Virus record (IMG/VR): IMGVR_UViG_2703718798_000014
Coordinates: 1 to 15,506 of that record
Strand: one strand, 5' to 3'
DNA from: a virus
Lineage: Duplodnaviria > Heunggongvirae > Uroviricota > Caudoviricetes
Length of the DNA stretch: 15,506 nucleotides
A program made the translations under genes and the position numbers. Under the pieces are notes generated by a model. That model had not been told where the DNA came from. It saw only the letters and a program-made list of their open reading frames with translations, and searched no databases. Positions 1 to 15,506 of this stretch are shown piece after piece; the first letter of the stretch is position 1, and each line of letters begins with the position of its first letter.

Positions 1-440
1 GGCGCTCCCCTTCATTGGCAGATTGATTATGCCTGAGGATCTCTAAATGCGAATTGCACGATTATACGAAGTACTTAACAACGTTTTATAGAAGCTTACG
101 CTCCAACCTCTCTATCTGTAGTCTGTTACAGACTAATGATGCAGTAATCTGCAAAAAATGACCAACCAATAATGGAATATCACTACAGGTTAATCACTAT
201 TGTCAGATACAAACTGCATTTATGGTATAAAGGTATGTGATCTTTTCTATCCATACTTGGTCCGGCGTGATAATACTGAAGCCTTCTTACAAAAGGTTGT
301 ATGATACAGGCTGGTCATATTTATATGACCCGATTCTCTGCTGGCTACGCCAGCTACCACGTAAGCCGGGAAAATGACTTGAGGGTAAATTTGCATCTGC
401 AAGCCACTTCCCCTAATCTAGCACAAAATATAGAGATTCA

Positions 441-491
441 ACCAAACGACTCGGGGTGCCCTTCTGCGTGAAGGCTGAGAAATACCCGTAT
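441..491 (+). ncRNA. 5' portion of a TPP (THI-box) riboswitch aptamer, thiM-leader-like, truncated after ...GAGAAATACCCGTAT
   Basis: 441-491 (AACCAAACGACTCGGGGTGCCCTTCTGCGTGAAGGCTGAGAAATACCCGTAT) matches the E. coli thiM leader as I recall it, including the CUGAGA element. The expected continuation (CACCUGAUCUGG...GCGUAGGGAA) is absent; sequence diverges at 492. From memory, not a search. Confidence 0.6.
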
Positions 492-576
492 TTTCTCATT
501 TAGTGTTTTTTGCGGTTCGGGGGTGTTCGTGGTTGTTTGTGTATGTATTTGATATTAAATGAATTATTCTATTTTC

Positions 577-644
577 TTGTTTGTTGTTGTTCGTCGTTGT
601 TCGTAGAGCTTCAACAAAATGTGTGGTCAGTTGTGTGGTCAGTT
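577..644. repeat. Left copy of a ~75-bp imperfect direct repeat (triple TTGTT box plus tandem GTGTGGTCAGTT x2), 36 bp upstream of int
   Basis: 566-643 aligns with 15423-15497 with about 6 mismatches; tandem 12-mer GTGTGGTCAGTT at 621-632 and 633-644. Confidence 0.7.
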
Positions 645-679
645 TTTTGAGGCTGGAGGACTGAAAAGAGGATCTGATA

Positions 680-1915
680 GTGGGAAAAGCACTAAACAAA
701 CTGAGCGATTCGACGTTAAAAAAATTGGCGGCTGTCCAGGCAGAAAAAGAGCGTTTTTACTCCGACGGGGGCGGGCTGGAGATTAAACACTCAAAAGGCG
801 GCAAATTAACCTGGTATTTTCGGTACCGAACGGGAGGCCGTGAGGTCGCCGCAGAGCGGTTAAAGCTGGGGGCTTACCCTGAGCTGTCGCTGAAAGCTGC
901 TAGGGAAAAACGCACACAGTGCCGGTCATGGCTGGCTGAGGGTAAAAATCCCCGTTATGAGTTGTGCGCCACAGTACAGGAAGCATTAAAACCCGTTACG
1001 GTGAAGGAGGCGATTAACTACTGGCTGGAGGAATACGCGAAGGATAATCGCAAAGACTACATAAAACTGGTGCAACGTATGGATAAGCACATCATTTGCC
1101 ATATAGGGGCAATCCCTCTTGATAAATGCGATACAAGGCAGTGGATCGCATGTTTTGACCGTGTACGAAAAAAAGCACCAGTAGCAGCAGGGCACGTCAT
1201 GCAAACCTGCAAACAGGCGCTAAAGTTCTGCCGCAGGAGGCGCTACGCGTTCAGTAATGCCCTGGACGATTTGATCGTCAGCGATGTGGGTAAGAGAGCA
1301 GAAATTCGCGAGAGGGTACACAGTAACAGCGAATTAAAGGAAATTTTACGCGCTATCGATGGTGATGTGTTCGCGCCTTACTACAGCGCGTTAATGCGCT
1401 TGCTGATTGTGTTCGGGTGCAGAACGGCAGAGGTCAGACTTTCAGAGATCAAAGAATGGGATCTGAAAGAAATGTTGTGGACAGTGCCAAAAGAGCACAG
1501 CAAAACGAAGGTAACGATATTCAGGCCAATCCCCGATGGCATTTTGCCGTTCATTCAGAAGCTGGTGGAGCAGAACCGACATACAGGGTTATTGCTCGGA
1601 GAACTGAAAAAAGATACCACGGTAGCGCAATATGGGCGAAATGCGCATAAGCGGCTTAACCAGGAACACTGGTCGCTGCATGACTTTCGCCACACGTTTA
1701 CAACGATGATGAACGATTTAGGTGTCGATCCGCATATCGTGGAGCACATCACAGCGCATCAGATGCCCGGTCAGCAAAAAACCTATAACCATTCACGCTA
1801 TTTACAGGCAAAGCGTGACGCCCTTAATCTATGGGTAGACCGTCTCGAGCTTCTCCAGAACAATGATGAAAAAATCGTTGTTATGATCCCGCGAATTTAC
1901 ACCCAAAATTCTTGA
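680..1915 (+). CDS. int: Tyrosine recombinase / phage integrase (P4-type, N-terminal arm-binding domain)
   Basis: 411 aa ORF with GTG start and AAGAGG RBS 8 nt upstream. C-terminal catalytic signature HDFRHTF...HITAH...YNHSRY (R/H-x-x-R/H, tyrosine). Lies at the island edge next to the junction. Confidence 0.9.
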   Translation: MGKALNKLSDSTLKKLAAVQAEKERFYSDGGGLEIKHSKGGKLTWYFRYRTGGREVAAERLKLGAYPELSLKAAREKRTQCRSWLAEGKNPRYELCATVQEALKPVTVKEAINYWLEEYAKDNRKDYIKLVQRMDKHIICHIGAIPLDKCDTRQWIACFDRVRKKAPVAAGHVMQTCKQALKFCRRRRYAFSNALDDLIVSDVGKRAEIRERVHSNSELKEILRAIDGDVFAPYYSALMRLLIVFGCRTAEVRLSEIKEWDLKEMLWTVPKEHSKTKVTIFRPIPDGILPFIQKLVEQNRHTGLLLGELKKDTTVAQYGRNAHKRLNQEHWSLHDFRHTFTTMMNDLGVDPHIVEHITAHQMPGQQKTYNHSRYLQAKRDALNLWVDRLELLQNNDEKIVVMIPRIYTQNS

Positions 1916-1958
1916 CAAATTACGGCTGTTTTTCTTGCGAAAAATGGCCCTCTAAAAT

Positions 1959-1991
1959 AAATCGTCGAATATCGGCAAATATCGACGATTT
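1959..1991. promoter_or_regulatory. Inverted repeat with perfect 10-bp arms (AAATCGTCGA / TCGACGATTT, 14-bp spacer) downstream of int
   Basis: Arms at 1959-1968 and 1982-1991 are exact reverse complements. No clear U-run follows, so a protein-binding site is as likely as a terminator. Confidence 0.35.
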
Positions 1992-2323
1992 ATATGTGTC
2001 AAGTATTGAAAAAATTTGAAATGTCTTCTTCTGAGTTCTTATTCTCTGTTTCTTGATTGTTCCAACACCTGATGGTTTATCTATTTGTTTTTAATGAGGT
2101 AACTCAGGTGTCATGCCAAATGACGACATTTTTTGTTGCGTCGCTTAAAAACTCGTGACACGATTTCATGAACAGCAGCAAACTCTAGAGAACTTTGACG
2201 AACATAAAGTTCAGAAAGGTTACGTATTCAATTTAAGAGGTGAAAAAAGCTAAGAAGTAATCTTTTCCCGTATATCCACAGCGAAACAAAAATTTCTATA
2301 CGTAATTTTATGTAGGGCTTTTT

Positions 2324-2518
2324 ATGCGCGAAATAAATGAAGATCGTGTAATCCGCGAAAAAGAATGCAGAGAGCTAACAGGCGTTTGCCGCACAACTCG
2401 TTACGAGATGGAAAAACAAGGCCGCTTTCCCTCCCGTATCAGTCTTGGCGGTCGTTCGGTTGGCTGGATTAAGTCTGAGGTTGTCGCCTGGGTCAAAAAC
2501 CGCGAACGCGTCAATTAA
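2324..2518 (+). CDS. alpA: AlpA-family (Xis-like, MerR-type winged helix) transcriptional regulator
   Basis: 64 aa; motif ELTGVCRTTRYEMEKQGRFPSRISLGGRSVGWIKSEVVAWV matches the AlpA pattern TG..R.T.Y....G.FP....LG.R.VGW..SE...W. Position immediately after int is typical of P4-like elements and PICIs. Confidence 0.85.
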   Translation: MREINEDRVIREKECRELTGVCRTTRYEMEKQGRFPSRISLGGRSVGWIKSEVVAWVKNRERVN

Positions 2519-2550
2519 GAATATTCATTCTTTAAATTCCGTCCGTGTTT

Positions 2551-2577
2551 TTGTTTGTACTTGTTCGCGGTTGTTCG
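2551..2577 (+). promoter_or_regulatory. Triple-box module TTGTTTGTAC-TTGTTCGCGG-TTGTTCG (10-bp register)
   Basis: Boxes begin at 2551, 2561, 2571. The same module recurs at 577-603, 15426-15452 and, in variant form, 7910-7936; a looser copy at 514-540. Followed by SD TAAGGAG (2608-2614) and ATG 2624. Confidence 0.55.
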
Positions 2578-2676
2578 TGAAGAAAAGAAGCGGCGCGTAT
2601 GCACCGCTAAGGAGTTTATTTTCATGACTTATGCAGCTTTCAATCTTAGCACCGCCGTAGCTGGTGGACAAGGCTA

Positions 2677-2904
2677 TCAGCCAGGCGGTCGGTTTTTGCC
2701 GGATTTAAGCCGCCGTGGGTATTTCTCGACAAAATCTTCAAGGGCAAATTTTTCTGGTGGCACTAAGCGCGGCGCTGGTGGTGGTATTTTTGTTCTGGTT
2801 AGTTCTTCCTCAAGTCTGGCGCAGGCTTCTGACTGCCTTTGCCGGATGATTTCATCATCTTGCGTTTGCGTGTCTTGTATTGGTGATAGTGTGTTGTTGG
2901 TCAT
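2677..2904 (-). CDS. Hypothetical protein (75 aa), second gene of leftward regulatory pair
   Basis: ORF downstream of and co-directional with the RHH gene; charged, helical-looking composition; weak RBS. No recognised domain. Confidence 0.4.
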   Translation of the reverse strand: MTNNTLSPIQDTQTQDDEIIRQRQSEACARLEEELTRTKIPPPAPRLVPPEKFALEDFVEKYPRRLKSGKNRPPG

Positions 2905-2961
2905 GATACTGCCCTGTAAAGCAATGCGCCGGAGTACCTCACACCACGGCGCTGATAGTGA

Positions 2962-3141
2962 TTATTCTGATTCTTTGGCCTTACGGCGCTGGCGGCGTTT
3001 GATCTCGCCTCGCATGGCTGTAACGATAAATTGCGCAGTGCTCTCGCCTGTTTCTTTTACTTGCTCCATAGCCTCAACAACTTCATGCGGGGCGCGAGCC
3101 TGTAATTTCTGTGATTTGTTATTGATATGGTCTCTTTCCAT
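2962..3141 (-). CDS. Ribbon-helix-helix (CopG/Arc/MetJ-like) DNA-binding protein, candidate island repressor
   Basis: 59 aa ORF, below the ORF-track length cutoff, translated by hand: MERDHINNKSQKLQARAPHEVVEAMEQVKETGESTAQFIVTAMRGEIKRRQRRKAKESE. Segment LQARAPHEVVEAMEQVKETGESTAQFIVTAM fits the RHH beta-strand/helix A/G-x-S turn/helix B pattern. AGGGA RBS 8 nt upstream. Start abuts a triple-palindrome operator. Confidence 0.5.
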   Translation of the reverse strand: MERDHINNKSQKLQARAPHEVVEAMEQVKETGESTAQFIVTAMRGEIKRRQRRKAKESE

Positions 3142-3157
3142 TTCTGGTTCCCTTTGT

Positions 3158-3259
3158 GATTACTGGAATCCAGTATACACGAAAAAGACCAAAACAAAAC
3201 GCTTGAAGTGGATTCCACTTAGTGATTATACTGGAATCCAGTTGAGTGTTTATCACTCA
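3158..3259. promoter_or_regulatory. Divergent promoter/operator region: three related palindromes (ACTGGAaTCCAGT x2, AAGTGGAtTCCACTT) plus IR TTGAGTG-N5-CACTCAA; candidate rightward promoter TTGAAG-N18-TATACT
   Basis: Perfect palindromes at 3163-3175, 3206-3220, 3230-3242. O1 and O3 sit in ~22-bp direct repeats (TGATTA(TA)CTGGAATCCAGT). -35 TTGAAG 3203-3208 and -10 TATACT 3227-3232 are overlapped by O2 and O3. A second TATACT on the minus strand (complement of 3173-3178) could serve the RHH gene. Confidence 0.5.
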
Positions 3260-3338
3260 ATGCAAACGAGGCTGAAAAGGATTGCCGTCCTTTCGCAGCC
3301 TCTGACCACCAACGATAGCGAAAGTATCGAGGTAGCTA

Positions 3339-3538
3339 TGAGAAATCATACCACACACCCGCAAGGGCGGGACTCGCACAACCTGAATAAATTCACCTGG
3401 CGCTTTATGCAGTGCCTGACAGACAGCATTGCAATATTCACCGTTACCGCTGCCACTGAACGCGAAGCCCGCGCCCAGTTGCCGCACGCACATCTGATTT
3501 TTGTCGCCCGTATTCGTCAGGGGGTGTGCCATGCCTGA
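3339..3538 (+). CDS. Hypothetical protein (66 aa; alternative start 3260 gives 93 aa), first gene of rightward operon
   Basis: GAGGT RBS 5 nt upstream of ATG 3339; E. coli-preferred codons; stop overlaps next gene start (coupling). Strand assignment is uncertain: an antisense ORF (3257-3532) covers the same DNA. Confidence 0.35.
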
Positions 3539-3851
3539 TATGTCAAATTACCAGTACCTGATTAATCCGCATTTTAAGTGTGATCATGATATTGCTAAGA
3601 AGGTTTATTCCGCTGCTGATGGGGCTACTGACAATATATCAATGGGTATTGCGTCAATTGGTAGCCTTATGTTTCATGCGTCAGAAAATGAGGAATATGA
3701 CGAAAAGGCCATGCGCATTGATATGGGTAATATCGGTTTGTTACTGGCAATGCTTGGACATTTTGATATTTCGTTACGGTGCACCATTGAAAATGCCACA
3801 GATGCATTAAATGCCATAAAGAAAGCGAATACTGATTCAAATCGGGGATAA
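3531..3851 (+). CDS. Hypothetical protein (106 aa)
   Basis: ATG 3531 with AGGGGG RBS 6 nt upstream; overlaps previous stop. No recognised motif. Confidence 0.5.
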   Translation: MPDMSNYQYLINPHFKCDHDIAKKVYSAADGATDNISMGIASIGSLMFHASENEEYDEKAMRIDMGNIGLLLAMLGHFDISLRCTIENATDALNAIKKANTDSNRG

Positions 3852-3857
3852 ATAATC

Positions 3858-4157
3858 ATGAGAACGTATTTATCTGGCTTGACTGCCAGCGGTTATGCAC
3901 ATCCAAAAATTATCCCCGGCGCTATTTATCGGGATAAGAACGGCAACAGAGTAACAGTAAAATCGATAATGTTTGACCGTGTGTATTTTATTCGTGATGG
4001 CTATTCATTTCATAGCTCGCTGAACGTGGAGATCTTTATTTGCAGATTCCGGCGGGAAATTCCGCCTTCCAGAAATAACCATGTGTCATGTATGGATGTT
4101 GATAAAAAACTACAGGAACTGAAAAACATGATTGCCGCGTGGAGAGAGCAGAAATGA
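3858..4157 (+). CDS. Hypothetical protein (99 aa)
   Basis: ATG 3858 with GGGGA RBS; stop overlaps primase start (ATGA). Confidence 0.5.
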   Translation: MRTYLSGLTASGYAHPKIIPGAIYRDKNGNRVTVKSIMFDRVYFIRDGYSFHSSLNVEIFICRFRREIPPSRNNHVSCMDVDKKLQELKNMIAAWREQK

Positions 4158-5971
4158 AAAAAGCGCCAAATTTAAAACACCAGCCACGTGACAAAATGAC
4201 GGAAGTCATCATTTTTGCGGGTAGTGATGCGTGGGCACATGCGAAGCAGTGGCAGGAACAGGACGGGCGACTGGCTGGCGATAACGTGCCACCTGTCTGG
4301 CTTGGAGAGCAACAACTTGCCGAACTGGACAACCTGCAAATCGTACCGGACGGACGCTATCGCGTGCGTCTCTATCAGGCGGGGTTATTGCGTTCGGGGC
4401 TTGTTAATACCATCGGGCAGAAACTGGCAGCGGCAGGTGTCAGGGATGCTGATTATTACCCTGAAGGAATGCACAGCCAGAAACGGGAGAACTGGCGCGA
4501 ATATCTGGAACGTGAGCGGGGAGATCTGACGGAAAAGAAAAAGGTAGTTGAACTGCCTGTAAAGAAAAAAGAGCGGGTAAAAGACGATAACGCTTCATCA
4601 CTGGCGCTTAACCAGATGGGAGCAAGTCAACGCGGCGAAGTTCTCCTGGCACATTATGGCGGTGAACTGGCGATTAATGCTGACTCTGACACTGTTCACC
4701 ATTACAACGGCGTTGTATGGGAGCCAGTACAGGATAAAGAATTACAGCGAGCTATGGCACAGATTTTCATTGATGCGGAGATCAGCTATTCGCAGAACGC
4801 CATTAAATCGGCGGTCGATACCATGAAGTTAAGTTTGCCTGTAATGGGGAATACAGCCCGTAACCTGATTGGATTCAGTAACGGGGTATTTGATACCCGT
4901 ACAGGTGATTTCCGTGAACACGATAAAAATGACTGGCTGTTAATTGCCAGTGAGTTACCGTTCACTCCACCAGCAGAAGGTGAAACGCTGGCAACACATG
5001 CGCCGAATTTCTGGAAGTGGTTACGCCGTTCGGTGGCTGAGAATGACCGCAAGGCAGATCGCGTTCTGGCAGCGTTATTTATGGTGCTGGCGAACCGGTA
5101 CGACTGGCAGTTATTCATTGAGGTAACAGGTCCAGGGGGAAGTGGTAAAAGCGTGATGGCGGAGATTTGCACCATGCTGGCGGGTAAGGCCAACACAGTA
5201 TCGGCAAGCATGAAGGCGCTGGAAGATGCAAGGGAACGCGCGTTAGTGGTTGGCTTTTCGCTGATTATCATGCCGGATATGACCCGCTACGCTGGTGATG
5301 GGGCAGGAATTAAGGCCATTACAGGCGGTGACAAGGTGGCAATTGACCCGAAACACAAAGCCCCCTACTCAACGCGTATTCCGGCAGTAGTGCTGGCGGT
5401 TAACAATAACGCCATGTCATTCAGTGACCGCAGCGGGGGGATCTCGCGCCGTCGGGTGATATTCAATTTTTCGGAAGTTGTACCGGAGAACGAACGCGAT
5501 TCAATGCTGGCGGAAAAAATAGAAGGTGAGCTGGCGGTAGTGATTCGTCATCTGCTTACACGGTTTGCTGACCAGGACGAAGCCAGACGCCTTTTATATG
5601 AGCAGCAGAAATCAGAAGAAGCACTCGCGATAAAGCGTGAAGGTGATTCGCTGGTGGACTTCTGCGGCTATCTCATGGCGTCGGTAATGTGTGATGGCCT
5701 GTTAGTGGGTAATGCTGAAATTGTGCCATTCAGCCCGCGCAGGTATCTCTATCATGCCTATCTGGCTTATATGAAGGCACATGGGTTTGGTAAACCTGTA
5801 ACACTGACGCGCTTCGGTAAAGATATGCCGGGGGCAATGGCGGAATATGGCAGGGAGTATATGAAACGGAAAACGAAGCACGGTTTGCGTTCAAACGTGA
5901 CACTGACGGAGGAATCAGAAGACTGGATGCCGTCATGTGTATCGGTCACTAATGACGATAGCAAAAATTAA
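4154..5971 (+). CDS. DNA primase/helicase, P4-family (SF3 helicase-type NTPase)
   Basis: 605 aa from ATG 4154 (GGAGAG RBS 7 nt upstream; the track start 4139 is an upstream GTG). Walker A GPGGSGKS in ...FIEVTGPGGSGKSVMAEI...; Walker B-like LIIMPD. Followed directly by an iteron array of the P4 ori type. Confidence 0.85.
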   Translation: MKKAPNLKHQPRDKMTEVIIFAGSDAWAHAKQWQEQDGRLAGDNVPPVWLGEQQLAELDNLQIVPDGRYRVRLYQAGLLRSGLVNTIGQKLAAAGVRDADYYPEGMHSQKRENWREYLERERGDLTEKKKVVELPVKKKERVKDDNASSLALNQMGASQRGEVLLAHYGGELAINADSDTVHHYNGVVWEPVQDKELQRAMAQIFIDAEISYSQNAIKSAVDTMKLSLPVMGNTARNLIGFSNGVFDTRTGDFREHDKNDWLLIASELPFTPPAEGETLATHAPNFWKWLRRSVAENDRKADRVLAALFMVLANRYDWQLFIEVTGPGGSGKSVMAEICTMLAGKANTVSASMKALEDARERALVVGFSLIIMPDMTRYAGDGAGIKAITGGDKVAIDPKHKAPYSTRIPAVVLAVNNNAMSFSDRSGGISRRRVIFNFSEVVPENERDSMLAEKIEGELAVVIRHLLTRFADQDEARRLLYEQQKSEEALAIKREGDSLVDFCGYLMASVMCDGLLVGNAEIVPFSPRRYLYHAYLAYMKAHGFGKPVTLTRFGKDMPGAMAEYGREYMKRKTKHGLRSNVTLTEESEDWMPSCVSVTNDDSKN

Positions 5972-5984
5972 ACTTATGGAATAA

Positions 5985-6213
5985 CTGTTCACCACTGTTC
6001 ACCCTGTCATAAATATCTTTTATATCAGTATATTATAGGGTGAACAGTTATTTATGAACTGTTCACCAAACTATTCACTGTTCACCTTTTTGATTGTTTA
6101 TTGAGCTTCAAGGGTGAACAGTGGTGAACAGTTGGTGAATAGTTTTTGTGAAACTGTTCACCCCTTAACATTATGAATTAAAAGATAAAATATCAAAAGG
6201 TGAACAGGTGAAG
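5985..6213. repeat. Replication origin: at least 9 exact copies of the octamer core TGTTCACC / GGTGAACA in both orientations (plus degenerate copies), flanking an AT-rich segment
   Basis: Direct (CTGTTCACC) at 5985, 5995, 6059, 6078, 6154, with degenerate 6071. Inverted (GGTGAACAG) at 6039, 6113, 6123, 6199, with degenerate 6134 and 6208. AT-rich 6010-6038. Octamer matches the P4 ori/crr type I iteron as I recall it. Confidence 0.75.
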
Positions 6214-6258
6214 GGTTAAAACGCAAAAATTTTAATTTACTGCTGTGAGATAAAGCCT

Positions 6259-6504
6259 ATGACAGCGAAGCACACAAAAAAATCACAATCGCACGCCCTT
6301 GATTTGACGGAACACTGGTTAAGGGTGTCGATAAAAATCATCGACCGCAACGCCGGGGAAGGATATGCGAAAGCACATCCCGAACTGATTAGCGCATTCA
6401 TGACAACGGCAGCTGCAAACTTTGCCACGCTGACAGAACGGGAGATTGCCGAAGCGGAACAGGTAACAACCATCAACGTTAAAACCGGAGAGGTGGAATC
6501 ATGA
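6259..6504 (+). CDS. Hypothetical protein (81 aa)
   Basis: First ORF after ori; no clear RBS; stop overlaps next start. Confidence 0.45.
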   Translation: MTAKHTKKSQSHALDLTEHWLRVSIKIIDRNAGEGYAKAHPELISAFMTTAAANFATLTEREIAEAEQVTTINVKTGEVES

Positions 6505-6806
6505 GCGAACCAAAATTTGGTGAAAAATTTTACAAGCACAACGGACGGATCACGATTCTGCAAATAAGCGCAGCTACACCAGGCTGGTGGGTTGAAACAG
6601 ACGAAGGATCCTCACCTGTGGCATCATGGGCGCTTTGTGTGCTTAGTTACCCTGACCGCGATGTGTATCAGGATATTCTGCCTGTGATATCCACTGACAA
6701 AGGCATGAAACCCGTAGACATCAAAAACATGGGTTTTCAGTGTGTAATGCTCACTGAAAAAATGATGGAAGAGATGAAAAAGAACAACGCCGGATCGCTT
6801 CACTGA
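6501..6806 (+). CDS. Hypothetical protein (101 aa)
   Basis: GGAGAGGTGG RBS; ATGA overlap with previous gene. Confidence 0.55.
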   Translation: MSEPKFGEKFYKHNGRITILQISAATPGWWVETDEGSSPVASWALCVLSYPDRDVYQDILPVISTDKGMKPVDIKNMGFQCVMLTEKMMEEMKKNNAGSLH

Positions 6807-6815
6807 GGTGGCAAT

Positions 6816-7226
6816 ATGACAGCACAAATTGCAGCTTACGGGCGGCTGGTGGACGACCCGCAGGTAAAACAGACCAGTAAGGGCACACCGATGACGCTGG
6901 CGCGTATGGCGGTATCGTTGCCATGTAGTCAGGCGCAGGATGGGCAGGCGACGTTATGGCTATCGGTCATCGCATTTGGTAAGCAGGCCGACTTCCTGGC
7001 TAAACATCAAAAAGGCGACGTTGCCAGCGTATCCGGCACGATGCAGGTCAGCCAGTGGACCGGACAGAACGGGGAAACGCGGCAGGGTTATCAGGTTATT
7101 GCAGACAGCGTAATCAGTGCCCGTGCGGCACGTCCTGGCGGGAACAGACGCAAAACCACAGGCACACAGGGTAATCAGCCACCAGCGGGAGGCGATGACC
7201 CTTACGGTGACGGTATTCCGTTCTGA
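6816..7226 (+). CDS. ssb: Single-stranded DNA-binding protein (OB-fold, SSB family) with short C-terminal ...DDPYGDGIPF tail
   Basis: GAGGTGG RBS. N-terminal YGRLVDDPQV...; core WLSVIAFGKQADFLAKHQKGDVASVSGTMQVSQWTGQNGETRQ aligns by eye with E. coli SSB (W..V..FGK.A....KG......G....WT...G); C-terminal GIPF resembles the DIPF tip. Confidence 0.75.
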   Translation: MTAQIAAYGRLVDDPQVKQTSKGTPMTLARMAVSLPCSQAQDGQATLWLSVIAFGKQADFLAKHQKGDVASVSGTMQVSQWTGQNGETRQGYQVIADSVISARAARPGGNRRKTTGTQGNQPPAGGDDPYGDGIPF

Positions 7227-7236
7227 GGGGGTGGCG

Positions 7237-7509
7237 ATGGTACATGACCGCATAGCGGAAGAACTCGAGGCGAAAGGCTTTTACCGGAGGGCGGCGGCGC
7301 GATGGGGTGAAGTCATGCTGCTGGTGGAGACAGACAAGGAACGGCATCAGGTTACGATGCGACGGCTGGAATGTTCCAGGAAGGCACAGAAGCCACCGGA
7401 GCCGCCGGATAACTTCGGAGACCTGAGAAAGGCAGTAGATCGCACTTATGCTGAAATGGGTATAGATGGTGTAAGCGATGAAATATGGCGTAATTACCCA
7501 GACAGCTAA
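7237..7509 (+). CDS. Hypothetical small protein (91 aa); possibly PerC-like regulator (tentative)
   Basis: ATG 7237 with GAGGGGG RBS (the track start 7117 is an upstream extension overlapping ssb). Motif EELEAKGFYRRAAARWGEVM resembles my recollection of PerC-family proteins; unverified. Confidence 0.5.
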   Translation: MVHDRIAEELEAKGFYRRAAARWGEVMLLVETDKERHQVTMRRLECSRKAQKPPEPPDNFGDLRKAVDRTYAEMGIDGVSDEIWRNYPDS

Positions 7510-7514
7510 TCAAC

Positions 7515-7538
7515 AGCCGGAGAAATCCGGCTTTTTTT
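7515..7538 (+). terminator. Rho-independent terminator (stem AGCCGGA / TCCGGCT, GAAA loop, T7 run)
   Basis: Perfect 7-bp stem 7515-7521 / 7526-7532, tetraloop GAAA, then TTTTTTT; directly after the stop of the 7237-7509 gene. Confidence 0.65.
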
Positions 7539-7633
7539 GCACCAGTTGAAACGGTATGGCGCATTACCGGGTTTTCGTCACGGTCAGGCATAGTTACTAT
7601 CTGAAACAAACAGACACAACAGAGGAAAAAACA

Positions 7634-7858
7634 ATGCCGATGAAATTTGATGAGATATTAAAACAGCGTGATAAATACCATGCTGACAACATGGAGACGA
7701 TGAGCATCAATGATTACCGCGCATTCCTGGAGACGGGCGCACTGATTGAAAAGGATCAGCATGGTTTTGTGAGATGTGCTCTGTCCGGTGAAATGCTGGC
7801 GGTAAATCCTGAACAGATAGATGCATTGATAGAATTTCTGAAAGGGATCAGGGACTGA
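7634..7858 (+). CDS. Hypothetical protein (74 aa)
   Basis: ATG 7634 with AGAGGA RBS 7 nt upstream (the track start 7556 is an upstream extension). Flanked by two near-identical terminators. Confidence 0.5.
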   Translation: MPMKFDEILKQRDKYHADNMETMSINDYRAFLETGALIEKDQHGFVRCALSGEMLAVNPEQIDALIEFLKGIRD

Positions 7859-7868
7859 GCACGCATAC

Positions 7869-7890
7869 AGCCGGAGCAATCCGGCTTTTT
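7869..7890 (+). terminator. Rho-independent terminator (same stem AGCCGGA / TCCGGCT, GCAA loop, T5 run)
   Basis: Stem 7869-7875 / 7880-7886 identical to the 7515 terminator; T-run follows. Confidence 0.6.
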
Positions 7891-7909
7891 GTCATTTTTT
7901 GTAAATTAT

Positions 7910-7936
7910 TTGTTCGTGGTTGTTCCACGTTGTTCA
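7910..7936 (+). promoter_or_regulatory. Triple-box module TTGTTCGTGG-TTGTTCCACG-TTGTTCA upstream of the head/packaging operon
   Basis: Boxes at 7910, 7920, 7930 in exact 10-bp register; 215 bp upstream of the capsid ATG; third box (TTGTTCAC) also resembles the ori iteron. Confidence 0.5.
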
Positions 7937-8001
7937 CTGACAGGATCGGCATATTTTACCCGAACTGAATCATGAGTATTCTCGCCCGTGGTGCCAGGAC
8001 G

Positions 8002-8049
8002 CTGGGGCCACTTTCCCGCCTGTTAATGTGCTCGCCAATATTCATTACC
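8002..8049. promoter_or_regulatory. Long inverted repeat (11-bp perfect arms TTTCCCGCCTG / CAGGCGGGAAA, 26-bp spacer) in the capsid-operon leader
   Basis: Arms 8002-8012 and 8039-8049 are exact reverse complements. Confidence 0.35.
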
Positions 8050-8112
8050 AGGCGGGAAAACGATCGGTGCGATTGCTGATTTCCTTATGAAAAACGGTTG
8101 AGTTTTTGCCGC

Positions 8113-8150
8113 GTCCTGGAGTTCCTTACTTAACCCCAGGACTTTTTTTT
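8113..8150 (+). terminator. Intrinsic-terminator-like hairpin plus T8 run ending at the capsid start codon (candidate attenuator or antitermination target)
   Basis: Stem TCCTGGAGTT (8114-8123) pairs with AACCCCAGGA (8132-8141) with one mismatch; T8 at 8143-8150; ATG at 8151. No Shine-Dalgarno can fit between hairpin and ATG. Confidence 0.5.
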
Positions 8151-9308
8151 ATGCCGAGAATAATCGAATTACGCCAGCAGAAAACCGCCATTAAAAATCA
8201 GATGCGCGACATGCTGGAGAACGCGGAAAAAGAAAACCGCAGCCTTAACGATGCAGAGGGCGCAAAATTTGACGAATTACGCGCTAAAGCTGAATCCCTC
8301 GATAAAGACATTTCCCGCCTTGAAGCCATTGCAGACGAAGAGCGCAGCAAGCCAGGTAAAAGCAGCCAGACCACTGACCCGGCAGAACTCCGCAACTACA
8401 TCCTGACAGGTGAAACCCGCGCATTAAGTACAGGCGTTCCCGCTGATGGTGGTTATACCGTTATCCCCGAACTGAACACCGAAATCATGCGAATGCTGAC
8501 GGATGAATCCACCATGCGCCGCATCTGTACCGTGAAGAAAATCAGCAGCAACGAGTTTAAGCAGCTTGTTTCCGCTGGCGGTGCGACCGTTAACCACGGT
8601 GAAGAGGGTAAGACACGCGAACAGACCAGCACCCCGCAGATTAACGAGGTGAGCATTAAGCTGTATCCGGTCTATGCGTACCCGCGCACCACACAGGAAA
8701 TCGTGGATTTTTCCGATGTGGACATCCTTTCATGGCTGACGGGTGAGATTGGCGACACCTTCACGGAAACCGAAGAAAGCGATCTGGTTGTGGGCGACGG
8801 TGACAAAAAAGCAAAAGGTTTTTTATCCGTACCCCGTGCAGAGAAGAACGACAAAGAGCGTGATTTTGGTACGTTGCAGGTAATTAAACCTTCCGAATCT
8901 CTGGCGTGGACATCTGCGGACCCGCTGATCGACCTGAAATTTGCATTACGTAAAAAATACCGCAAAAACGCGGTCTGGGTGGTTAACTCCACGACGGCGG
9001 CAAAACTTCAGAAGGTGAAGAACGCGAACGGTGATTACATCTGGCGCGACCGTTTACAGGCTGGTGATCCTGATACGTTGCTGGGCCTTCCGGTCGAATA
9101 TCTGGAGTTTATGCCTGATAACGTTATTGCCCTGGGTGACTTCAAACGCGGTTACTACATTGTTGATCACGAAACAGGTGTTCGCACCAGACCGGACAAC
9201 CTCACAGAGCCGGGCTTCATCAAAATTTTCACGCAGAAATATTTAGGCGGTGGCGTGGTGGATTCGAACGCGATCAAGATTCTGGAACTGCCACAGGACG
9301 ACGATTAA
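8151..9308 (+). CDS. Major capsid protein, HK97 fold, with N-terminal delta (scaffold-like) domain
   Basis: 385 aa from ATG 8151 (the track start 8106 is an upstream TTG). N-terminal coiled-coil-like IELRQQKTAIKNQMRDMLENAEKENRSLNDAEGAKFDELRAKAESLDKDISRLEA; C-terminal half resembles HK97 gp5 by eye (...GDYIWRD...LLGLPVEY...GDFKRGYYIVDHETG...). Confidence 0.9.
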   Translation: MPRIIELRQQKTAIKNQMRDMLENAEKENRSLNDAEGAKFDELRAKAESLDKDISRLEAIADEERSKPGKSSQTTDPAELRNYILTGETRALSTGVPADGGYTVIPELNTEIMRMLTDESTMRRICTVKKISSNEFKQLVSAGGATVNHGEEGKTREQTSTPQINEVSIKLYPVYAYPRTTQEIVDFSDVDILSWLTGEIGDTFTETEESDLVVGDGDKKAKGFLSVPRAEKNDKERDFGTLQVIKPSESLAWTSADPLIDLKFALRKKYRKNAVWVVNSTTAAKLQKVKNANGDYIWRDRLQAGDPDTLLGLPVEYLEFMPDNVIALGDFKRGYYIVDHETGVRTRPDNLTEPGFIKIFTQKYLGGGVVDSNAIKILELPQDDD

Positions 9309-9318
9309 CAGCATACAG

Positions 9319-9347
9319 AAGGGGCTTAAAAGCCCCTTTAGTGTTTT
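9319..9347 (+). terminator. Stem-loop (AAGGGGCTT / AAGCCCCTT) after the capsid gene; partial terminator or stability element
   Basis: Perfect 9-bp inverted repeat 9319-9327 / 9330-9338, followed by T-rich TTTAGTGTTTT; sits between capsid stop and protease start. Confidence 0.4.
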
Positions 9348-9920
9348 ATGGGTGAAAAAATTATGAAGAGTATGGAAATCCGGTCATCGGAAATCACCAC
9401 CAGCGCCAGCAACACGCTTACAGGCTACGTTGTTCGCTGGGATAAGCTTTCAGAGCTGCTATGGGGGGAGTTTTACGAAAAATTCCAGCGGGGAGCGTTT
9501 ACTGAATGGCTTGCGGCGGGTAATGACGTTCGCGGCCTGTATGAGCATGACCACAGCATGTTGCTGGGGCGTACCCGTTCCGGCACGCTGAAACTGGAAG
9601 AGGACGAAACAGGGTTACGCTTTGAACTGACCCCACCGGATACCAGTACAGGGCGCGACGTTATCGAACTGGTTAAGCGTGGGGACATCTCGGGGATGAG
9701 CTTTGGCTTTCGCTCCCGTAAGGATGTATGGGATACCACAACAGATCCATGCGTGCGCACCGTGCTGGTGGCGGAACTGTACGAAATTACCGTTACATCG
9801 GTACCGGCTTACCCCGATTCCGGCGTGGAGCTGGCCCGCCGTTCCCTGTATGAGCAGCACCCCGAAAAAATGCCGCGTGCGGATAATCGCCGCTGGTGGG
9901 TGGATTTAGCGGGGGTGTGA
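9348..9920 (+). CDS. Prohead maturation protease, HK97 family (peptidase S78)
   Basis: Motifs TGYVVRWD, YEHDHSMLLGRTRSGTL, GRDVIELVKRGDISGMSFGF, ITVTSVPAYPDSG match the HK97 gp4-type protease pattern. Start ambiguous (ATG at 9348, 9363 or 9372). Confidence 0.85.
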   Translation: MGEKIMKSMEIRSSEITTSASNTLTGYVVRWDKLSELLWGEFYEKFQRGAFTEWLAAGNDVRGLYEHDHSMLLGRTRSGTLKLEEDETGLRFELTPPDTSTGRDVIELVKRGDISGMSFGFRSRKDVWDTTTDPCVRTVLVAELYEITVTSVPAYPDSGVELARRSLYEQHPEKMPRADNRRWWVDLAGV

Positions 9921-9921
9921 T

Positions 9922-11133
9922 ATGTGGCTTTTCAGAAGAAAAAAAGAGCAGCGCAGCATGACGCTTGATGAATTTATGGCGCTGGCTGGCACATCGAACA
10001 CGGGGGCGGGTGAGTACGTATCATCGGGGACAGCGGAATCACTGCCCGCCGTCATGAACGCCGTGACGGTCATCTCTGAGGCGGTGGCTACCATGCCGTG
10101 TTACCTGTACCTGGTACGCAATGAGAAGGGTAAGGAGGCCCGCGAGTGGCTTGATTCTCATCCGGTCGATCATATCCTCAACGAGCGCCCGAACGCATGG
10201 CAAACCCCCTACCAGTTTAAGCGAATGATGATCCGCCACTGCCTGTTAAACGGTAATGCTTACGCGGTGATTCAGTGGGGGCGTGATGGTTTTCCGGCGG
10301 CTTTACATCCTTACCCGCCGCAGTCGGTGAACGTGGAGCAGACAGGAGAACACAACTGGCGCTATTGCATCACTGACGCCTACACCGGAAACACCCGCAA
10401 CTATTTACCGTGGGAAGTACTTCACCTTCGTTACTCCACGGATGACGGCTTTATGGGGCGCTCACCTGTAACCATCTGCCGCGAATCGCTGGGGCTTGGG
10501 CTGGCCCAACAACGCCACGGCGCGAGCGTGATGCGTGATGGCATGATGGCGGCAGGGGTTATCACGTCAGGCGAATGGCTGGACGGCGTGAAAGGCAAAC
10601 AGGCATTAGCCGCACTGGAACGCTACAAAGGGGCCAGAAACGCCGGAAAAACGCCCATCCTTGAAGGGGGCATGAGTTACCAGCAGCTGGGCATGAGTAA
10701 CCAGGACGCCGAATGGCTGGCCTCCCGTCGCTTCACCATTGAAGACATCGCCCGAATGTTCAACGTCTCGCCGATTTTTCTGCAGGAATACAGCAACAGC
10801 ACCTACAGCAATTTCAGCGAGGCAAGCCGCGCATTTCTCACCATGACGATGCGCCCGTGGCTGGCGAACTTTGAGCAGCAGATAAAAAACGCCTTGCTGG
10901 TGGTCTCGCCTGTACCTGGTATCCGGTATCAGGTGGAGTTTGACAGCGCGGACCTGTTACGGGCCACACCTGGCGAACGCTTTGCCACCTATGAGCGAGG
11001 CATCAAATCCGGTGTTATGTGCCCGAACGAAGCCCGCGAACGAGAAGGGTTGTCTCCGCGTGATGGTGGTGATGAGTTCAGCCAGGCATGGAAACAGGAA
11101 GTAAAAATCAGCGAGGGAGAAAAACCGGAATGA
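9922..11133 (+). CDS. Portal protein, HK97 family
   Basis: 403 aa; portal-like motifs ERPNAWQTPYQF, LLNGNAYAVIQW, GRSPVTICRESLGLGLA, DAEWLASRRFTIEDIARMFNVSPIFL, NEAREREGL. GGGGGTG RBS; position after protease. Confidence 0.9.
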   Translation: MWLFRRKKEQRSMTLDEFMALAGTSNTGAGEYVSSGTAESLPAVMNAVTVISEAVATMPCYLYLVRNEKGKEAREWLDSHPVDHILNERPNAWQTPYQFKRMMIRHCLLNGNAYAVIQWGRDGFPAALHPYPPQSVNVEQTGEHNWRYCITDAYTGNTRNYLPWEVLHLRYSTDDGFMGRSPVTICRESLGLGLAQQRHGASVMRDGMMAAGVITSGEWLDGVKGKQALAALERYKGARNAGKTPILEGGMSYQQLGMSNQDAEWLASRRFTIEDIARMFNVSPIFLQEYSNSTYSNFSEASRAFLTMTMRPWLANFEQQIKNALLVVSPVPGIRYQVEFDSADLLRATPGERFATYERGIKSGVMCPNEAREREGLSPRDGGDEFSQAWKQEVKISEGEKPE

Positions 11134-11468
11134 ACATAGGGCGACTGCGTGACAGGGTAACGATTCAGACCCTGAAACAGACCAGAGCCATGACGGGCGA
11201 AATACTCGAAACGTGGGAGGACGGTCACACACTCTGGGCAAGCGTGAACATGGTCAGCAGCAAGGAGGCCATTTCATCGGGTGCAGAGCTGGCGATTGGT
11301 ACCGTAAGGATCTGGATACGGTACCGGAAGGACATCAACGCCACCAGCCGGATAAAGGTCAATACGGGGCCGCTGGCGGGGCGTGTACTGAATATCATCG
11401 GGCAGCCGCTGCCGGATGCCGCCAGGACACGCCTTGAAATTCTTTGTCGTGAGGGCGCGGAAAAATGA
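11130..11468 (+). CDS. Head closure / head-tail joining protein (Phage_H_T_join-like)
   Basis: 112 aa from ATG 11130 (ATGA overlap with portal stop; the track start 11088 is an upstream extension). N-terminus MNIGRLRDRVTIQ and ...WASV...IRYRKDI... fit the head-tail joining family pattern. Confidence 0.7.
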   Translation: MNIGRLRDRVTIQTLKQTRAMTGEILETWEDGHTLWASVNMVSSKEAISSGAELAIGTVRIWIRYRKDINATSRIKVNTGPLAGRVLNIIGQPLPDAARTRLEILCREGAEK

Positions 11469-11761
11469 CAGAAGAACTTATCACCCTGGAAGAAGTGAAA
11501 CTCCATTGCCGCATCGATGGCGACGAGGAAGACCAGTTAATCAGCGGATACATTGCCGCATCGCTTGAGGCGTGCCAGATACACATAGGCAGGCGCTTTG
11601 ATGACGGGCTGGAGTTCACGCCAGCCATAAAGATTGGCTGCATGATGTTTATCGCTCACCTGTATGAGAATCGCCAGATTGTCGCGGATAACGCAAAAAC
11701 ACACGTACCCATGACGATTGGCGCACTCTGGACGGCTTACCGTGATGTGGGGGTGTACTGA
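11465..11761 (+). CDS. gp6-like head-tail connector (DNA-packaging) protein
   Basis: 98 aa; N-terminus LITLEEVKLHCRIDGDEEDQLISGYIAASLEACQIHIGRRF matches the gp6-like connector pattern; start overlaps previous stop. Confidence 0.7.
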   Translation: MTEELITLEEVKLHCRIDGDEEDQLISGYIAASLEACQIHIGRRFDDGLEFTPAIKIGCMMFIAHLYENRQIVADNAKTHVPMTIGALWTAYRDVGVY

Positions 11762-12201
11762 TGCCGTGGCAACCATTAAGACGATGTACAGAACCAGGCT
11801 GCAACAGGCGCGTGAAGTCCGGCAAGTGTGAGGAGCACAGACGCAGCGCACGCCAGCAGCAGGACAGCCGGAGAGGCAGCAGCAGGGAGCGAGGGTATAC
11901 GAGGCAGTGGGAGAAATACCGCGCCATGTATCTGAGTAAAAACCCGTTATGTGCGCATTGCCTGGAAAAAGGAATATACACGCCCGCCGTGGTGGTGGAT
12001 CACATTATCCCAATCGATGGCGGTAATGATGTTCTCTTCTGGCCTGAGTGGAATCATCAGCCATTGTGCCAGGCGTGTCATAACCAGAAAACGAAATGGC
12101 TTGATCCGTCCACAAAAAACAAGCGTGCTGCGGGTGGATTCCGTGAGGAGGAAGAACGGGCCGCTAACCGCAATAACTGGATGTATGGCGCTGATGAATG
12201 A
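11761..12201 (+). CDS. HNH endonuclease (packaging-associated)
   Basis: 146 aa; zinc-finger/HNH signature CTEPGCNRRVKSGKCEEH...NPLCAHCL...VDHIIPIDGGND...NHQPLCQACHNQKT. Position just upstream of the terminase genes is typical of HNH/cos-packaging HK97-like heads. Confidence 0.85.
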   Translation: MPWQPLRRCTEPGCNRRVKSGKCEEHRRSARQQQDSRRGSSRERGYTRQWEKYRAMYLSKNPLCAHCLEKGIYTPAVVVDHIIPIDGGNDVLFWPEWNHQPLCQACHNQKTKWLDPSTKNKRAAGGFREEEERAANRNNWMYGADE

Positions 12202-12367
12202 GCGGGAACAAAACCGCCTTATCCGTGGACTTATAAGGCAGCGTGACGCATGGAAGGCACAGGAAACAGGGCATAAAGATAAAGCATCAGGACGCGCAGA
12301 ACGCATCACAGCGACGCGATTAAACGACCGTGACCGCGAGGTTATGGAATGTTTCCGCAATCGCTGA
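12194..12367 (+). CDS. Possible small basic protein (57 aa) between HNH and cos candidate
   Basis: ATG 12194 (or 12185), weak RBS, overlaps HNH stop. Product MNEREQNRLIRGLIRQRDAWKAQETGHK... The track ORF 11951-12367 is an upstream extension overlapping HNH. Confidence 0.3.
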   Translation: MNEREQNRLIRGLIRQRDAWKAQETGHKDKASGRAERITATRLNDRDREVMECFRNR

Positions 12368-12370
12368 TGA

Positions 12371-12489
12371 GGCAGCCGGACGGGGTGGGGGGAGTTTTCA
12401 GGACGAACCCGACCCCGCCCAGAACCGAACGCCTCCTCAAATTTTTATGCACGGGAATTTTTTGAAAAATAATCTGGCGAAAAATAAGC
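12371..12489. other. Candidate cos (terminase recognition/cleavage) region: G-rich imperfect inverted repeat followed by AT-rich A-tract DNA
   Basis: GGACGGGGTGGGG (12378-12390) and CCCGACCCCGCCC (12408-12420) are imperfect inverse complements; then AAATTTTTATGCACGGGAATTTTTTGAAAAATAAT. Located between HNH and TerS as in HK97-like cos phages. Confidence 0.35.
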
Positions 12490-12846
12490 ATGGCAAGACC
12501 ACCGAAAGTCCCCGCCTACCTGGATGACATCGCCGTGAAGCAGTGGCGGGAAAAATCGCGGCAGCTTGCGGAACGGGGAGACCTGACCCCCGCCGACTGG
12601 AGCAATCTGGAACTGTATTGTGTCAACTACTCCATTTACCGGAAAGCCGTTGCAGACCTTGCGGCGCGCGGGTTCAGCATTGTTAACAGTCAGGGCGGCG
12701 AGAGCAGAAACCCCGCATTAAGCGCAAAATCCGACGCTGAAAGAGTGATGATAAAAATGGCCTCCTTGCTCGGTTTTGACCCGATAAGCCGCCGTAAAAA
12801 TCCACCGGAAACAGAAGAAGAGGACGAGCTTGACCGCCTGGAATAA
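12490..12846 (+). CDS. terS: Terminase small subunit (P27 / HK97 gp1 family)
   Basis: 118 aa; pattern ...AVKQWREKSRQLAERGDLTPADWSNLELYCVNYSIYRKAVADL...SRNPALSAKSDAERVMIKMASLLGFDPISRRK matches P27-family small terminase; stop overlaps TerL start. Confidence 0.85.
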   Translation: MARPPKVPAYLDDIAVKQWREKSRQLAERGDLTPADWSNLELYCVNYSIYRKAVADLAARGFSIVNSQGGESRNPALSAKSDAERVMIKMASLLGFDPISRRKNPPETEEEDELDRLE

Positions 12847-14491: not shown

Positions 14492-14504
14492 TGAGGTCAG
14501 CAGC

Positions 14505-14786
14505 ATGACAGAAGCCGAAATAACGGGATTAATCCGCCGCGTTGCCGGAATCAGCCAGCAGGCTGACGAACAGGCCACGCAGCCGGACAGCGTGACAGCC
14601 GAAAACTATGCGCGTGTTGTTGCTGAGGTGATGCGCCGTGATGGTATAGAACTTAATGGCGTGGATATGCGCAACATACGAACCAGAGTTCTTGAGTTGC
14701 TGGCCTACCGTCGCCGCGTGGAGATGTATCGGGAGAAGGAGAAAATAACGTACCACTGGAAGAAGCCGGAGCGGTTGCGGCGGTAA
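14505..14786 (+). CDS. Hypothetical protein (93 aa) downstream of TerL
   Basis: GAGGT RBS 7 nt upstream of ATG 14505; basic C-terminus. No recognised motif. Confidence 0.5.
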   Translation: MTEAEITGLIRRVAGISQQADEQATQPDSVTAENYARVVAEVMRRDGIELNGVDMRNIRTRVLELLAYRRRVEMYREKEKITYHWKKPERLRR

Positions 14787-15081
14787 CTGGTTGATATTCC
14801 CGACGGACCAAAAATGGGTGGCTACATCCCTCGCTTCTGAGGACTGTTAACAAGCTGCCTGAAAGACAGTCACAAACTACGAAATTTTCGCAGTTTAATT
14901 AATGATCAGCTTAATCGCTAACCCGCTGATATTTTCGGAAACCTCAATTTGAGGAAGTCGGCGCGGTAACTCGCTGAACTTTAAGCAAAGTGCAAAATTG
15001 CGCTTGCTGAATAATCATTATGATTACGCAGATGATTAAGGAATGACCGAAGGCGGAAATTCGCCTGTGGTTAATGGGGGA

Positions 15082-15362
15082 GTTGCAGATCTGCAACTCG
15101 ACCATGAAACTACGGAAACTACCCGTAGTTTGGGTAGTAAGAGTAACACCCAGATTTTGGGTCTTACTCGTGATACCCAAATTTGGGGTATCAGTGGCAA
15201 CCATAACGACTTTCGTTACGGTTGATGCTTTTACCCCATTGGGGGAAAGGTATTACGATAATCATAACACCTACCGAACAGGTAAAGCCCACCAGCCTGA
15301 TTAACGTTTAACCGGAAAAAAATTCCGGTAGGTGGGGATCCCCATATCGGGGAACATCCACC
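15082..15362. other. Palindrome-dense non-coding segment (8 or more distinct inverted repeats), candidate structured RNA or multi-protein recognition site
   Basis: GTTGCAGATCTGCAAC (15082-15097); AAACTACGG/CCGTAGTTT (15107-15131); nested AGTAAGA...ACCCAGATTTTGGGT...TCTTACT (15136-15168); GATACCCAAATTTGGGGTATC (15172-15192); CCCCATTGGGG (15234-15244); CCGGAAAAAAATTCCGG (15312-15328); GGTGGGGATCCCCATATCGGGGAACATCCACC (15331-15362). No plausible ORF. Confidence 0.45.
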
Positions 15363-15422
15363 AGCTTCATAACGGATAGCCGGAAAATGATAACGGTTAA
15401 GCAAAACCGCCAGCAAATTTCC

Positions 15423-15497
15423 CTTTTGTTTGTTATTGTTCGTCATTGTTCGCAGAGCTTCAACGAAATGTGTGGTCAGTTGTGTGGTCAGTTTTTA
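15423..15497. repeat. Right copy of the ~75-bp imperfect direct repeat (triple TTGTT box plus tandem GTGTGGTCAGTT x2)
   Basis: 15423-15497 aligns with 566-643. Boxes at 15426, 15436, 15446; tandem 12-mer at 15469-15492. Homology ends after CAGTTTTT; the window ends 9 bp later. Confidence 0.7.
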
Positions 15498-15506
15498 GGT
15501 TTTTAA

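Follow-up and report, generated by a model that had tools for sequence, protein, structure and literature searches.

The systems closest to the locus considered here are the replication modules of phage P4 and those found in phage-inducible chromosomal islands (PICIs). For the latter, the origin was assigned by Fillol-Salom et al. (2018; PMC6092414) to the DNA lying directly 3' of the initiator gene: the pri-ori segment of EcCICFT073 maintains a temperature-sensitive plasmid at the restrictive temperature, and deletion of either pri or ori reduces its maintenance. The Pri-Rep initiator was described there as only distantly related to the P4 alpha protein, and the organisation of the ori as shared with no other replicon. 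The location of PICI origins after pri-rep, the type I iterons of P4 and the homology of Pri-Rep to alpha are, therefore, already known. Here we analyse a 15,506-nucleotide stretch of viral DNA (Caudoviricetes; IMG/VR record IMGVR_UViG_2703718798_000014, positions 1 to 15,506; the window), which by its gene content is a capsid-forming PICI (cf-PICI) and not a P4-like satellite. Positions 5986-6214 very probably constitute the vegetative, initiator-dependent replication origin of this island.

The region contains twelve iterons, nine of them exact copies of the octamer TGTTCACC and three degenerate, in a dyad-symmetric layout with two AT-rich spacers and a central spacer between inverted iteron sets. 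The first iteron begins 14 bp past the stop codon of the initiator gene (5969-5971). Features are as follows.

5986..5993, plus strand: iteron, exact TGTTCACC
5996..6003, plus strand: iteron, exact TGTTCACC
6004..6038: 35-bp AT-rich spacer on the left (80% AT), a candidate unwinding element
6039..6046, minus strand: iteron, exact TGTTCACC
6060..6067, plus strand: iteron, exact TGTTCACC
6072..6079, plus strand: degenerate iteron TATTCACT, 2 mismatches, overlapping the next iteron by 1 nt; TATTCACC at this place in relatives
6079..6086, plus strand: iteron, exact TGTTCACC
6087..6112: 26-bp central spacer (73% AT) separating the inverted modules; its sequence is poorly conserved
6113..6120, minus strand: iteron, exact TGTTCACC
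6123..6130, minus strand: iteron, exact TGTTCACC
6134..6141, minus strand: iteron TATTCACC, 1 mismatch
6155..6162, plus strand: iteron, exact TGTTCACC, followed by a conserved CCnnTAAC...ATGAAT, also present in P4 ori
6163..6198: 36-bp AT-rich spacer on the right (83% AT), the second candidate for an unwinding element
6199..6206, minus strand: iteron, exact TGTTCACC
6207..6214, minus strand: degenerate iteron CCTTCACC, 2 mismatches; GTGTTCACC at this place in relatives
5986..6086, minus strand: left module of the predicted origin, corresponding to a reversed P4 ori core, with the order two iterons, AT-rich spacer of 35 bp, one opposite iteron, three iterons
6113..6214, plus strand: right module of the predicted origin, corresponding to a directly oriented P4 ori core, with the order three iterons, one opposite iteron, AT-rich spacer of 36 bp, two iterons

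Exact matches to TGTTCACC number ten in the whole window, and nine of them, five on the plus and four on the minus strand, fall within 221 bp (5986-6206). Dinucleotide shuffles give an expectation of 0.59 matches per whole window, none of 200 reaching ten, and for nine out of ten to fall within one particular stretch of 221 bp the binomial probability is about 2e-16; the single match outside the cluster, at 4693, is within chance. All twelve iterons share a single helical face, their period being 10.5-10.75 bp (Rayleigh R = 0.81 at 10.5 bp, a value matched by 6 of 20,000 random placements); the six iterons of P4 ori give R = 0.86-0.98. An earlier note on this DNA, made from the sequence alone, had counted the octamer about eleven times in both orientations, a fair estimate of the actual twelve, and the 10-bp phase that it described holds even more strongly than stated. 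The single AT-rich core of 29 bp which it had placed at the centre is instead replaced by the two AT-rich spacers, of 35 and 36 bp, and the 26-bp central spacer.

The octamer, equated in that note with the P4 type I iteron, is indeed the same: in GenBank X51522 six "ori type 1 repeat" features are annotated within the P4 ori (9310-9413), all of them exactly TGTTCACC, while the ten type 1 repeats annotated in crr are either TGTTCACC or one-mismatch variants. Similarity to P4 extends beyond the iterons. A blastn comparison aligns window positions 6108-6180 with P4 ori positions 9304-9378 at 78.7% identity. The right half of the region matches the P4 ori core at 80% identity over 76 bp (z=23 against shuffles), and the left half matches the reverse complement of P4 9300-9420 at 73% over 109 bp (z=18). 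Scored pairwise, each half also matches the inverted form of the other, and, in a multiple alignment, the right half and the reverse-complemented left half both fall in register with P4 9300-9420, as do both halves of the element in LR881103, a complete 16.5-kb relative. Because each half aligns with that core, the region as a whole is, at the level of alignment, made up of two copies of the P4 ori core in inverted arrangement.

The window and P4 ori share, in addition to the octamer and a DNA identity of 73-80%, the order of the parts (three phased iterons, one opposite iteron with CCnnTAAC, about 35 bp of AT-rich DNA, two iterons) and the helical phasing of the iterons. They differ in that the module is present once in P4, but twice, inverted and side by side, in the window, and in the location of the cluster, which directly follows the initiator gene here, while P4 has its ori 2.3 kb upstream of alpha. 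The window also lacks the type 2 repeats of P4 and a separate crr several kb off: instead of two separated cis elements, ori and a distant crr, one compound cluster is found both in the window and in the complete LR881103. The host elements differ as well, the window being a PICI that encodes capsid and terminase proteins of its own, and not a P4-like satellite.

The position of the cluster suggests a different explanation, namely that it is only an auxiliary enhancer similar to crr, looping to, or stimulating, an initiation site elsewhere in the island. P4 crr, too, lies directly downstream of the initiator gene, is duplicated and has type I iterons facing both ways around a T-rich spacer, and both halves of the window region can be aligned with crr units (z=8-15). 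These scores are, however, below those obtained with the ori core, and crr is organised differently, as direct 120-bp repeats with the iteron order two, spacer, three opposite, one, while the window halves are inverted. Moreover, no second iteron cluster was found elsewhere in the 15.5-kb window, in the complete LR881103 or, for TTCACC iterons, in the flanks (+/-3 kb) of PICI-type loci; the lone match at 4693 does not exceed chance. Finally, the EcCICFT073 initiator gene together with its downstream region was sufficient to support plasmid replication (PMC6092414). We consider a role as enhancer only to be improbable.

The motif beside the lone opposite iteron, CCnnTAAC...ATGAAT in PICIs (window 6163-6180) and CCCTTTAACTTACTGTAT in P4 (9361-9380), is kept across genera within an otherwise variable AT-rich spacer, and may mark the start of melting or priming. 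In a P4-like locus of Erwinia rhapontici, encoding an alpha-type protein, no iterons directly follow the alpha gene, and TGTTCACC clusters are located about 4.3 kb upstream and about 2.1-2.2 kb downstream of the alpha stop codon, indicating that P4-like elements vary in where ori and crr are placed.

EcCICFT073 is also close in organisation. The two islands share the gene order int, alpA, DUF4222, pri-rep, ori, ssb, perC, and the Pri-Rep protein of EcCICFT073 is 49% identical to the window initiator over the full length, N-terminal domain included. Directly 3' of its gene, iterons with a TCTACC core follow the same dyad arrangement (two iterons, an AT-rich spacer, one opposite, three, then two opposite, one, a spacer and two opposite), and replication has been shown for this module. 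The window likewise features two units of iterons and AT-rich spacer (80% and 83% AT), as in PICI pri-rep/ori modules. Given the same layout and the similarity of the initiators, the window cluster can be regarded as an allelic variant of an experimentally tested origin. The two alleles differ in the iteron core, TCTACC in EcCICFT073 versus TTCACC in the window, with a corresponding difference in a segment of the binding domain. A further difference from the published description is that the DNA of the window allele is directly homologous to P4 ori. In the literature searched, no paper linking PICI iterons with the P4 iteron was found, and a full-text search for the octamer TGTTCACC returned only unrelated primer sequences.

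Conservation was evaluated in 72 loci encoding relatives of the initiator, from a scan at one genome per species. An iteron cluster is present at the same offsets after the stop codon in relatives from about 10 genera. PICI-type relatives, found in Kluyvera, Raoultella, Pluralibacter, Citrobacter and Klebsiella, contain 9-11 TTCACC cores within 450 bp after the initiator gene; in these genera and in other E. coli islands, the iterons are placed at nearly unchanged offsets (+15, +68, +108, +152 and +228 from the stop codon). In ten PICI-type origins, where TTCACC is the conserved iteron core, pairwise identity is 0.93 in iteron columns versus 0.62 in spacer columns (Mann-Whitney p=2e-16). The left spacer is AT-rich in all aligned relatives, and in EcCICFT073 too.

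Two of the related records are of interest in themselves. LR881103.1, deposited as "Escherichia phage vB_KppS-Ant" (an induced prophage), contains the gene set of a cf-PICI and, after its "DNA primase", the same dyad origin of TTCACC iterons, and seems to be a packaged satellite rather than a phage. NZ_CP148328.1, a circular 10,790-bp "plasmid" (pZ1323HEC0475-3), is in fact a PICI, with genes for an integrase, an AlpA-like regulator, an Icd-like protein, DUF4222, the same initiator and a protease-capsid fusion. Its origin is 99.3% identical to that of the window; the record could be an extrachromosomal form, or the assembly of excised circles.

The protein expected to act on these repeats is encoded immediately upstream. 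The relevant coding features are listed here.

4154..5971, plus strand: alpha-like initiator gene, 605 aa from ATG 4154, comprising a modular N-terminal domain of about 115 aa, D5_N, a helicase of the SF3/D5 type and, at the C-terminus, an origin-binding domain
5642..5932, plus strand: region coding for the C-terminal winged-helix origin-binding domain, residues 502-598 (numbered from 4139), including the variable segment KRKTKHGLRSNVTL
3858..4157, plus strand: DUF4222 gene (Pfam DUF4222), its stop overlapping the initiator start (ATGA)

The program-made list of open reading frames (ORFs) places the start of the initiator at GTG 4139; alignment with homologues and the 1818-nt gene annotated by RefSeq in NZ_CP148328.1 make ATG 4154 the most likely start. 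The protein matches Pfam D5_N, DUF5906 and Pox_D5, and is 48% identical to residues 290-771 of P4 alpha over 484 aa (E=3e-164), a span comprising D5_N, the SF3 helicase, with its Walker A motif GPGGSGKS conserved, and the C-terminal domain. The last 100 or so residues match the origin-binding winged helix of P4 alpha in PDB 1KA8 (phmmer E=1.4e-24), the role of which in origin binding has been described (PMC2777425). The initiator shares, therefore, the helicase and the origin-binding domain of alpha, and differs from it at the N-terminus, where an unrelated domain of about 115 aa is found in place of the Zn-ribbon and Toprim primase. This domain has no Pfam or NCBIfam match, and also occurs fused to helicases of the RepA/AAA_25 type. 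Its invariant residues are F-A-G, just past the first strand, and A-G, just past the third, positions which we take, from a model-based mapping and not from an alignment, to be those of the conserved Glu-Gly and DxD of Toprim. The annotation label "DNA primase family protein" is not substantiated by the protein sequence, in which no primase active site is recognisable.

The DUF4222 gene is probably co-translated with the initiator: translational coupling is suggested by the ATGA overlap and by the annotation of DUF4222 directly upstream also in NZ_CP148328.1, L077 and EcCICFT073. Its product has no NCBIfam match. It was considered as a counterpart of P4 cnr (ORF106), and BLASTP revealed no similarity to Cnr.

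In other relatives the cluster is found in the same place, but is built from a different repeated word. The word tracks the variable segment of the binding domain (KRKTKHGLRSNVTL in the window), which we call the wing, while the rest of the C-terminal domain stays conserved. The associations are the following.

Segment KRKTKHG(L/I)RSN or KRHTKQGIQTN (pattern KR[KH]TK.G..[ST]N), word TGTTCACC (TTCACC core): window, P4 and others
Segment C-T-(K/R)-GPDKGR, word TGTCTACC (GTCTACC): E. ruysiae, K. georgiana, Enterobacter
Segment ESKKKATRGR, word TGTCCGCC: Serratia
Segment ERATRGPSKGN, word TGTCCACC: Serratia oryzae
Segment (K/I)KGVTQTN, TCTACC core: EcCICFT073, Symbiopectobacterium
Segment KFKTKRGYYYN, word TGTGCACC: Proteus

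The association does not depend on the N-terminus of the protein, which may be of the PICI type (about 600 aa) or contain an alpha-type primase (about 800 aa). Such co-variation is expected if the C-terminal domain binds these repeats, and the short variable segment appears, from these comparisons, to work as an exchangeable code that sets the specificity for six or more iteron words, whatever the N-terminal domain.

These data leave little room for the possibility that the cluster is a chance repeat or a non-functional relic, such as the remnant of a recombination with a P4-like satellite, which we regard as very improbable. Chance is ruled out by the counts and their clustering; the iterons are selectively conserved across genera, relative to the spacers, and co-vary with the binding domain. 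In addition, the 601 bp around the origin are found in 652 of 5426 complete E. coli genomes (about 12%), mostly at an identity of at least 95%; more than 500 E. coli genomes contain the origin region at or above this level, and O157:H7 is among the carriers of the island. An Rfam scan of the whole window found no family at threshold, so that a structured RNA is not indicated.

The reading proposed in the earlier note, an island ori, is borne out by the homology to the P4 ori core, the conserved offsets, the iteron footprint and the layout shared with the EcCICFT073 pri-ori; absence of the iterons from related islands, which that note would have taken as refuting it, is contradicted by their presence there at the same offsets. 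The comparison with annotated P4 ori and crr which it had suggested yielded the same octamer and a better fit of both halves to the ori core. The link that it drew to the specificity of alpha gains support from the match to 1KA8 and from the way in which the iteron word and the most variable part of that domain change together. As to the "primase/helicase" that it placed just upstream, the position is right, although it corresponds to that of P4 crr and not of P4 ori, and so is the helicase, which is of the alpha-like SF3 type; a recognisable alpha primase domain is absent.

The iterons might, alternatively, serve mainly as an operator, through which the initiator regulates its own gene or blocks read-through into the genes from 6259 onward. 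Plasmid initiators that bind iterons often also have a regulatory function. All genes of the island are transcribed rightward through the region, and a consensus scan of 5850-6350 found no site resembling a promoter or a terminator, so that bound initiator would sit in the path of transcription. Twelve phased sites, inverted modules, AT-rich spacers and homology to a proven origin, however, exceed the needs of an operator, and deletion of the EcCICFT073 ori reduced replication (PMC6092414). A mainly regulatory function is, in our opinion, improbable, while a secondary one, alongside origin function, is possible.

A number of points weigh against an assignment of the cluster as origin. We infer origin function for this particular allele from homology and conservation, and RefSeq annotation has no feature under the repeats. 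The cluster occupies the position of the auxiliary cis element of P4, crr, and not that of P4 ori. Comparison of Pfam matches shows that the Zn-ribbon and Toprim primase domains of alpha are absent from the initiator, and the P4 mechanism cannot, for this reason, be transferred as a whole. Finally, in the EcCICFT073 origin (7000-7240 of the record) only the left spacer is AT-rich, the right one being GC-rich (ccgcgccattactggcatggtggcc), which suggests that the two modules may be non-equivalent and that the left spacer may be the main unwinding element. With these points taken into account, a replication origin is still the reading that we consider very probable.

For such an origin, we infer binding, melting, double-hexamer loading, directionality and priming along the following lines. 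Upon induction of the island, the upstream gene (4154-5971) would produce the alpha-like initiator, whose C-terminal winged helix would recognise the TGTTCACC iterons (core TTCACC); the twelve iterons, on one face of the helix and in two inverted modules homologous to the P4 ori core, would be its sites. Bound initiator would multimerise through its SF3/D5-type helicase domain, melt one or both of the AT-rich spacers and load as one or more hexameric helicases. The dyad layout suggests, by analogy with P4 ori and other palindromic origins served by SF3 helicases, two opposed hexamers and bidirectional theta replication. The island-encoded single-strand DNA-binding protein (SSB) would coat the unwound strands, and synthesis would be carried out by the host Pol III; primers could be supplied either by the Toprim-like N-terminal domain or by the host DnaG. 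The palindromic origins in question, those of SV40 large T and papillomavirus E1, along with the poxvirus D5/E5 double hexamers (PMC12137749), involve helicases of the same superfamily, and inverted initiator sites flank easily melted DNA, which makes two opposed hexamers likely by analogy. In contrast, these origins are unrelated in sequence to the one described here, the DNA-binding domain is different and a double hexamer is, for the window, only predicted.

The rest of the island agrees with its classification. The unidirectional order typical of PICIs is observed, with integrase, AlpA, initiator, SSB and PerC all on the plus strand, and Pfam identifies the whole cf-PICI set of capsid, protease, portal, head-tail connectors, HNH, TerS and TerL between 8106 and 14491, in agreement with the gene organisation of the EcCIEDL933 type (bioRxiv 10.1101/2022.09.08.507074). 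No tail genes are seen up to position 15506, and the window may stop short of the end of the island; a scan of the window for tRNA genes, as a clue to the integration site, found none. Other genes are listed below.

680-1915, plus strand: integrase
2324-2518, plus strand: AlpA
~3260-3538, plus strand: Icd-like protein
6816-7226, plus strand: SSB (Pfam SSB, E=4e-17), probable accessory replication factor
7117-7509, plus strand: PerC-family regulator ORF
8106-9308, plus strand: major capsid protein
9348-9920, plus strand: prohead protease
9922-11133, plus strand: portal
11088-11468, plus strand: head completion protein
11465-11761, plus strand: head-tail connector
11761-12201, plus strand: HNH endonuclease
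12490-12846, plus strand: TerS
12830-14491, plus strand: TerL

EcCICFT073 and an island of O157:H7 likewise have SSB genes annotated at this position. The SSB and PerC reading frames, as called by the program, overlap in different frames, and the true start of PerC is probably downstream of the SSB stop. A connection between PerC homologues on PICIs of E. coli and activation of the LEE pathogenicity island has been described (PMC6092414). At 2555-3538, only the last 90 or so residues of a 327-aa ORF starting with TTG match anything (an Icd-like cell-division inhibitor, phrog_6196); this ORF is probably over-called, since related islands annotate an Icd-like gene of about 67 aa there.

What is added here to previous knowledge is an iteron word identical to that of P4, the homology of the DNA to the P4 ori core, the inverted duplication, the lack of a recognisable primase domain and the co-variation of word and segment. 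These additions are useful, and will not greatly surprise the specialist. An origin is located for a very common mobile island of E. coli, where public annotation has nothing. PICI origins of this type are, on this evidence, homologous to the P4 origin and not a separate invention, which qualifies the statement that their organisation is shared with no other replicon (PMC6092414). The natural co-variation of word and wing offers ready-made predictions for the reading of DNA by these initiators.

The binding domain encoded in the window is about 50% identical to that of P4 alpha, with exactly the same iteron. P4-like satellites are present in almost half of E. coli genomes (PMC8628076). Since iteron and domain are so similar, and since the island itself is found in about 12% of the genomes, this PICI family and P4-like satellites could cross-talk at replication through their common iteron specificity, an idea which we put forward tentatively and consider rather unlikely. 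If true, the effect might go either way, with P4 alpha firing or titrating the PICI origin or the PICI initiator working on P4 ori and crr, and the outcome could be piracy, interference or incompatibility between satellites.
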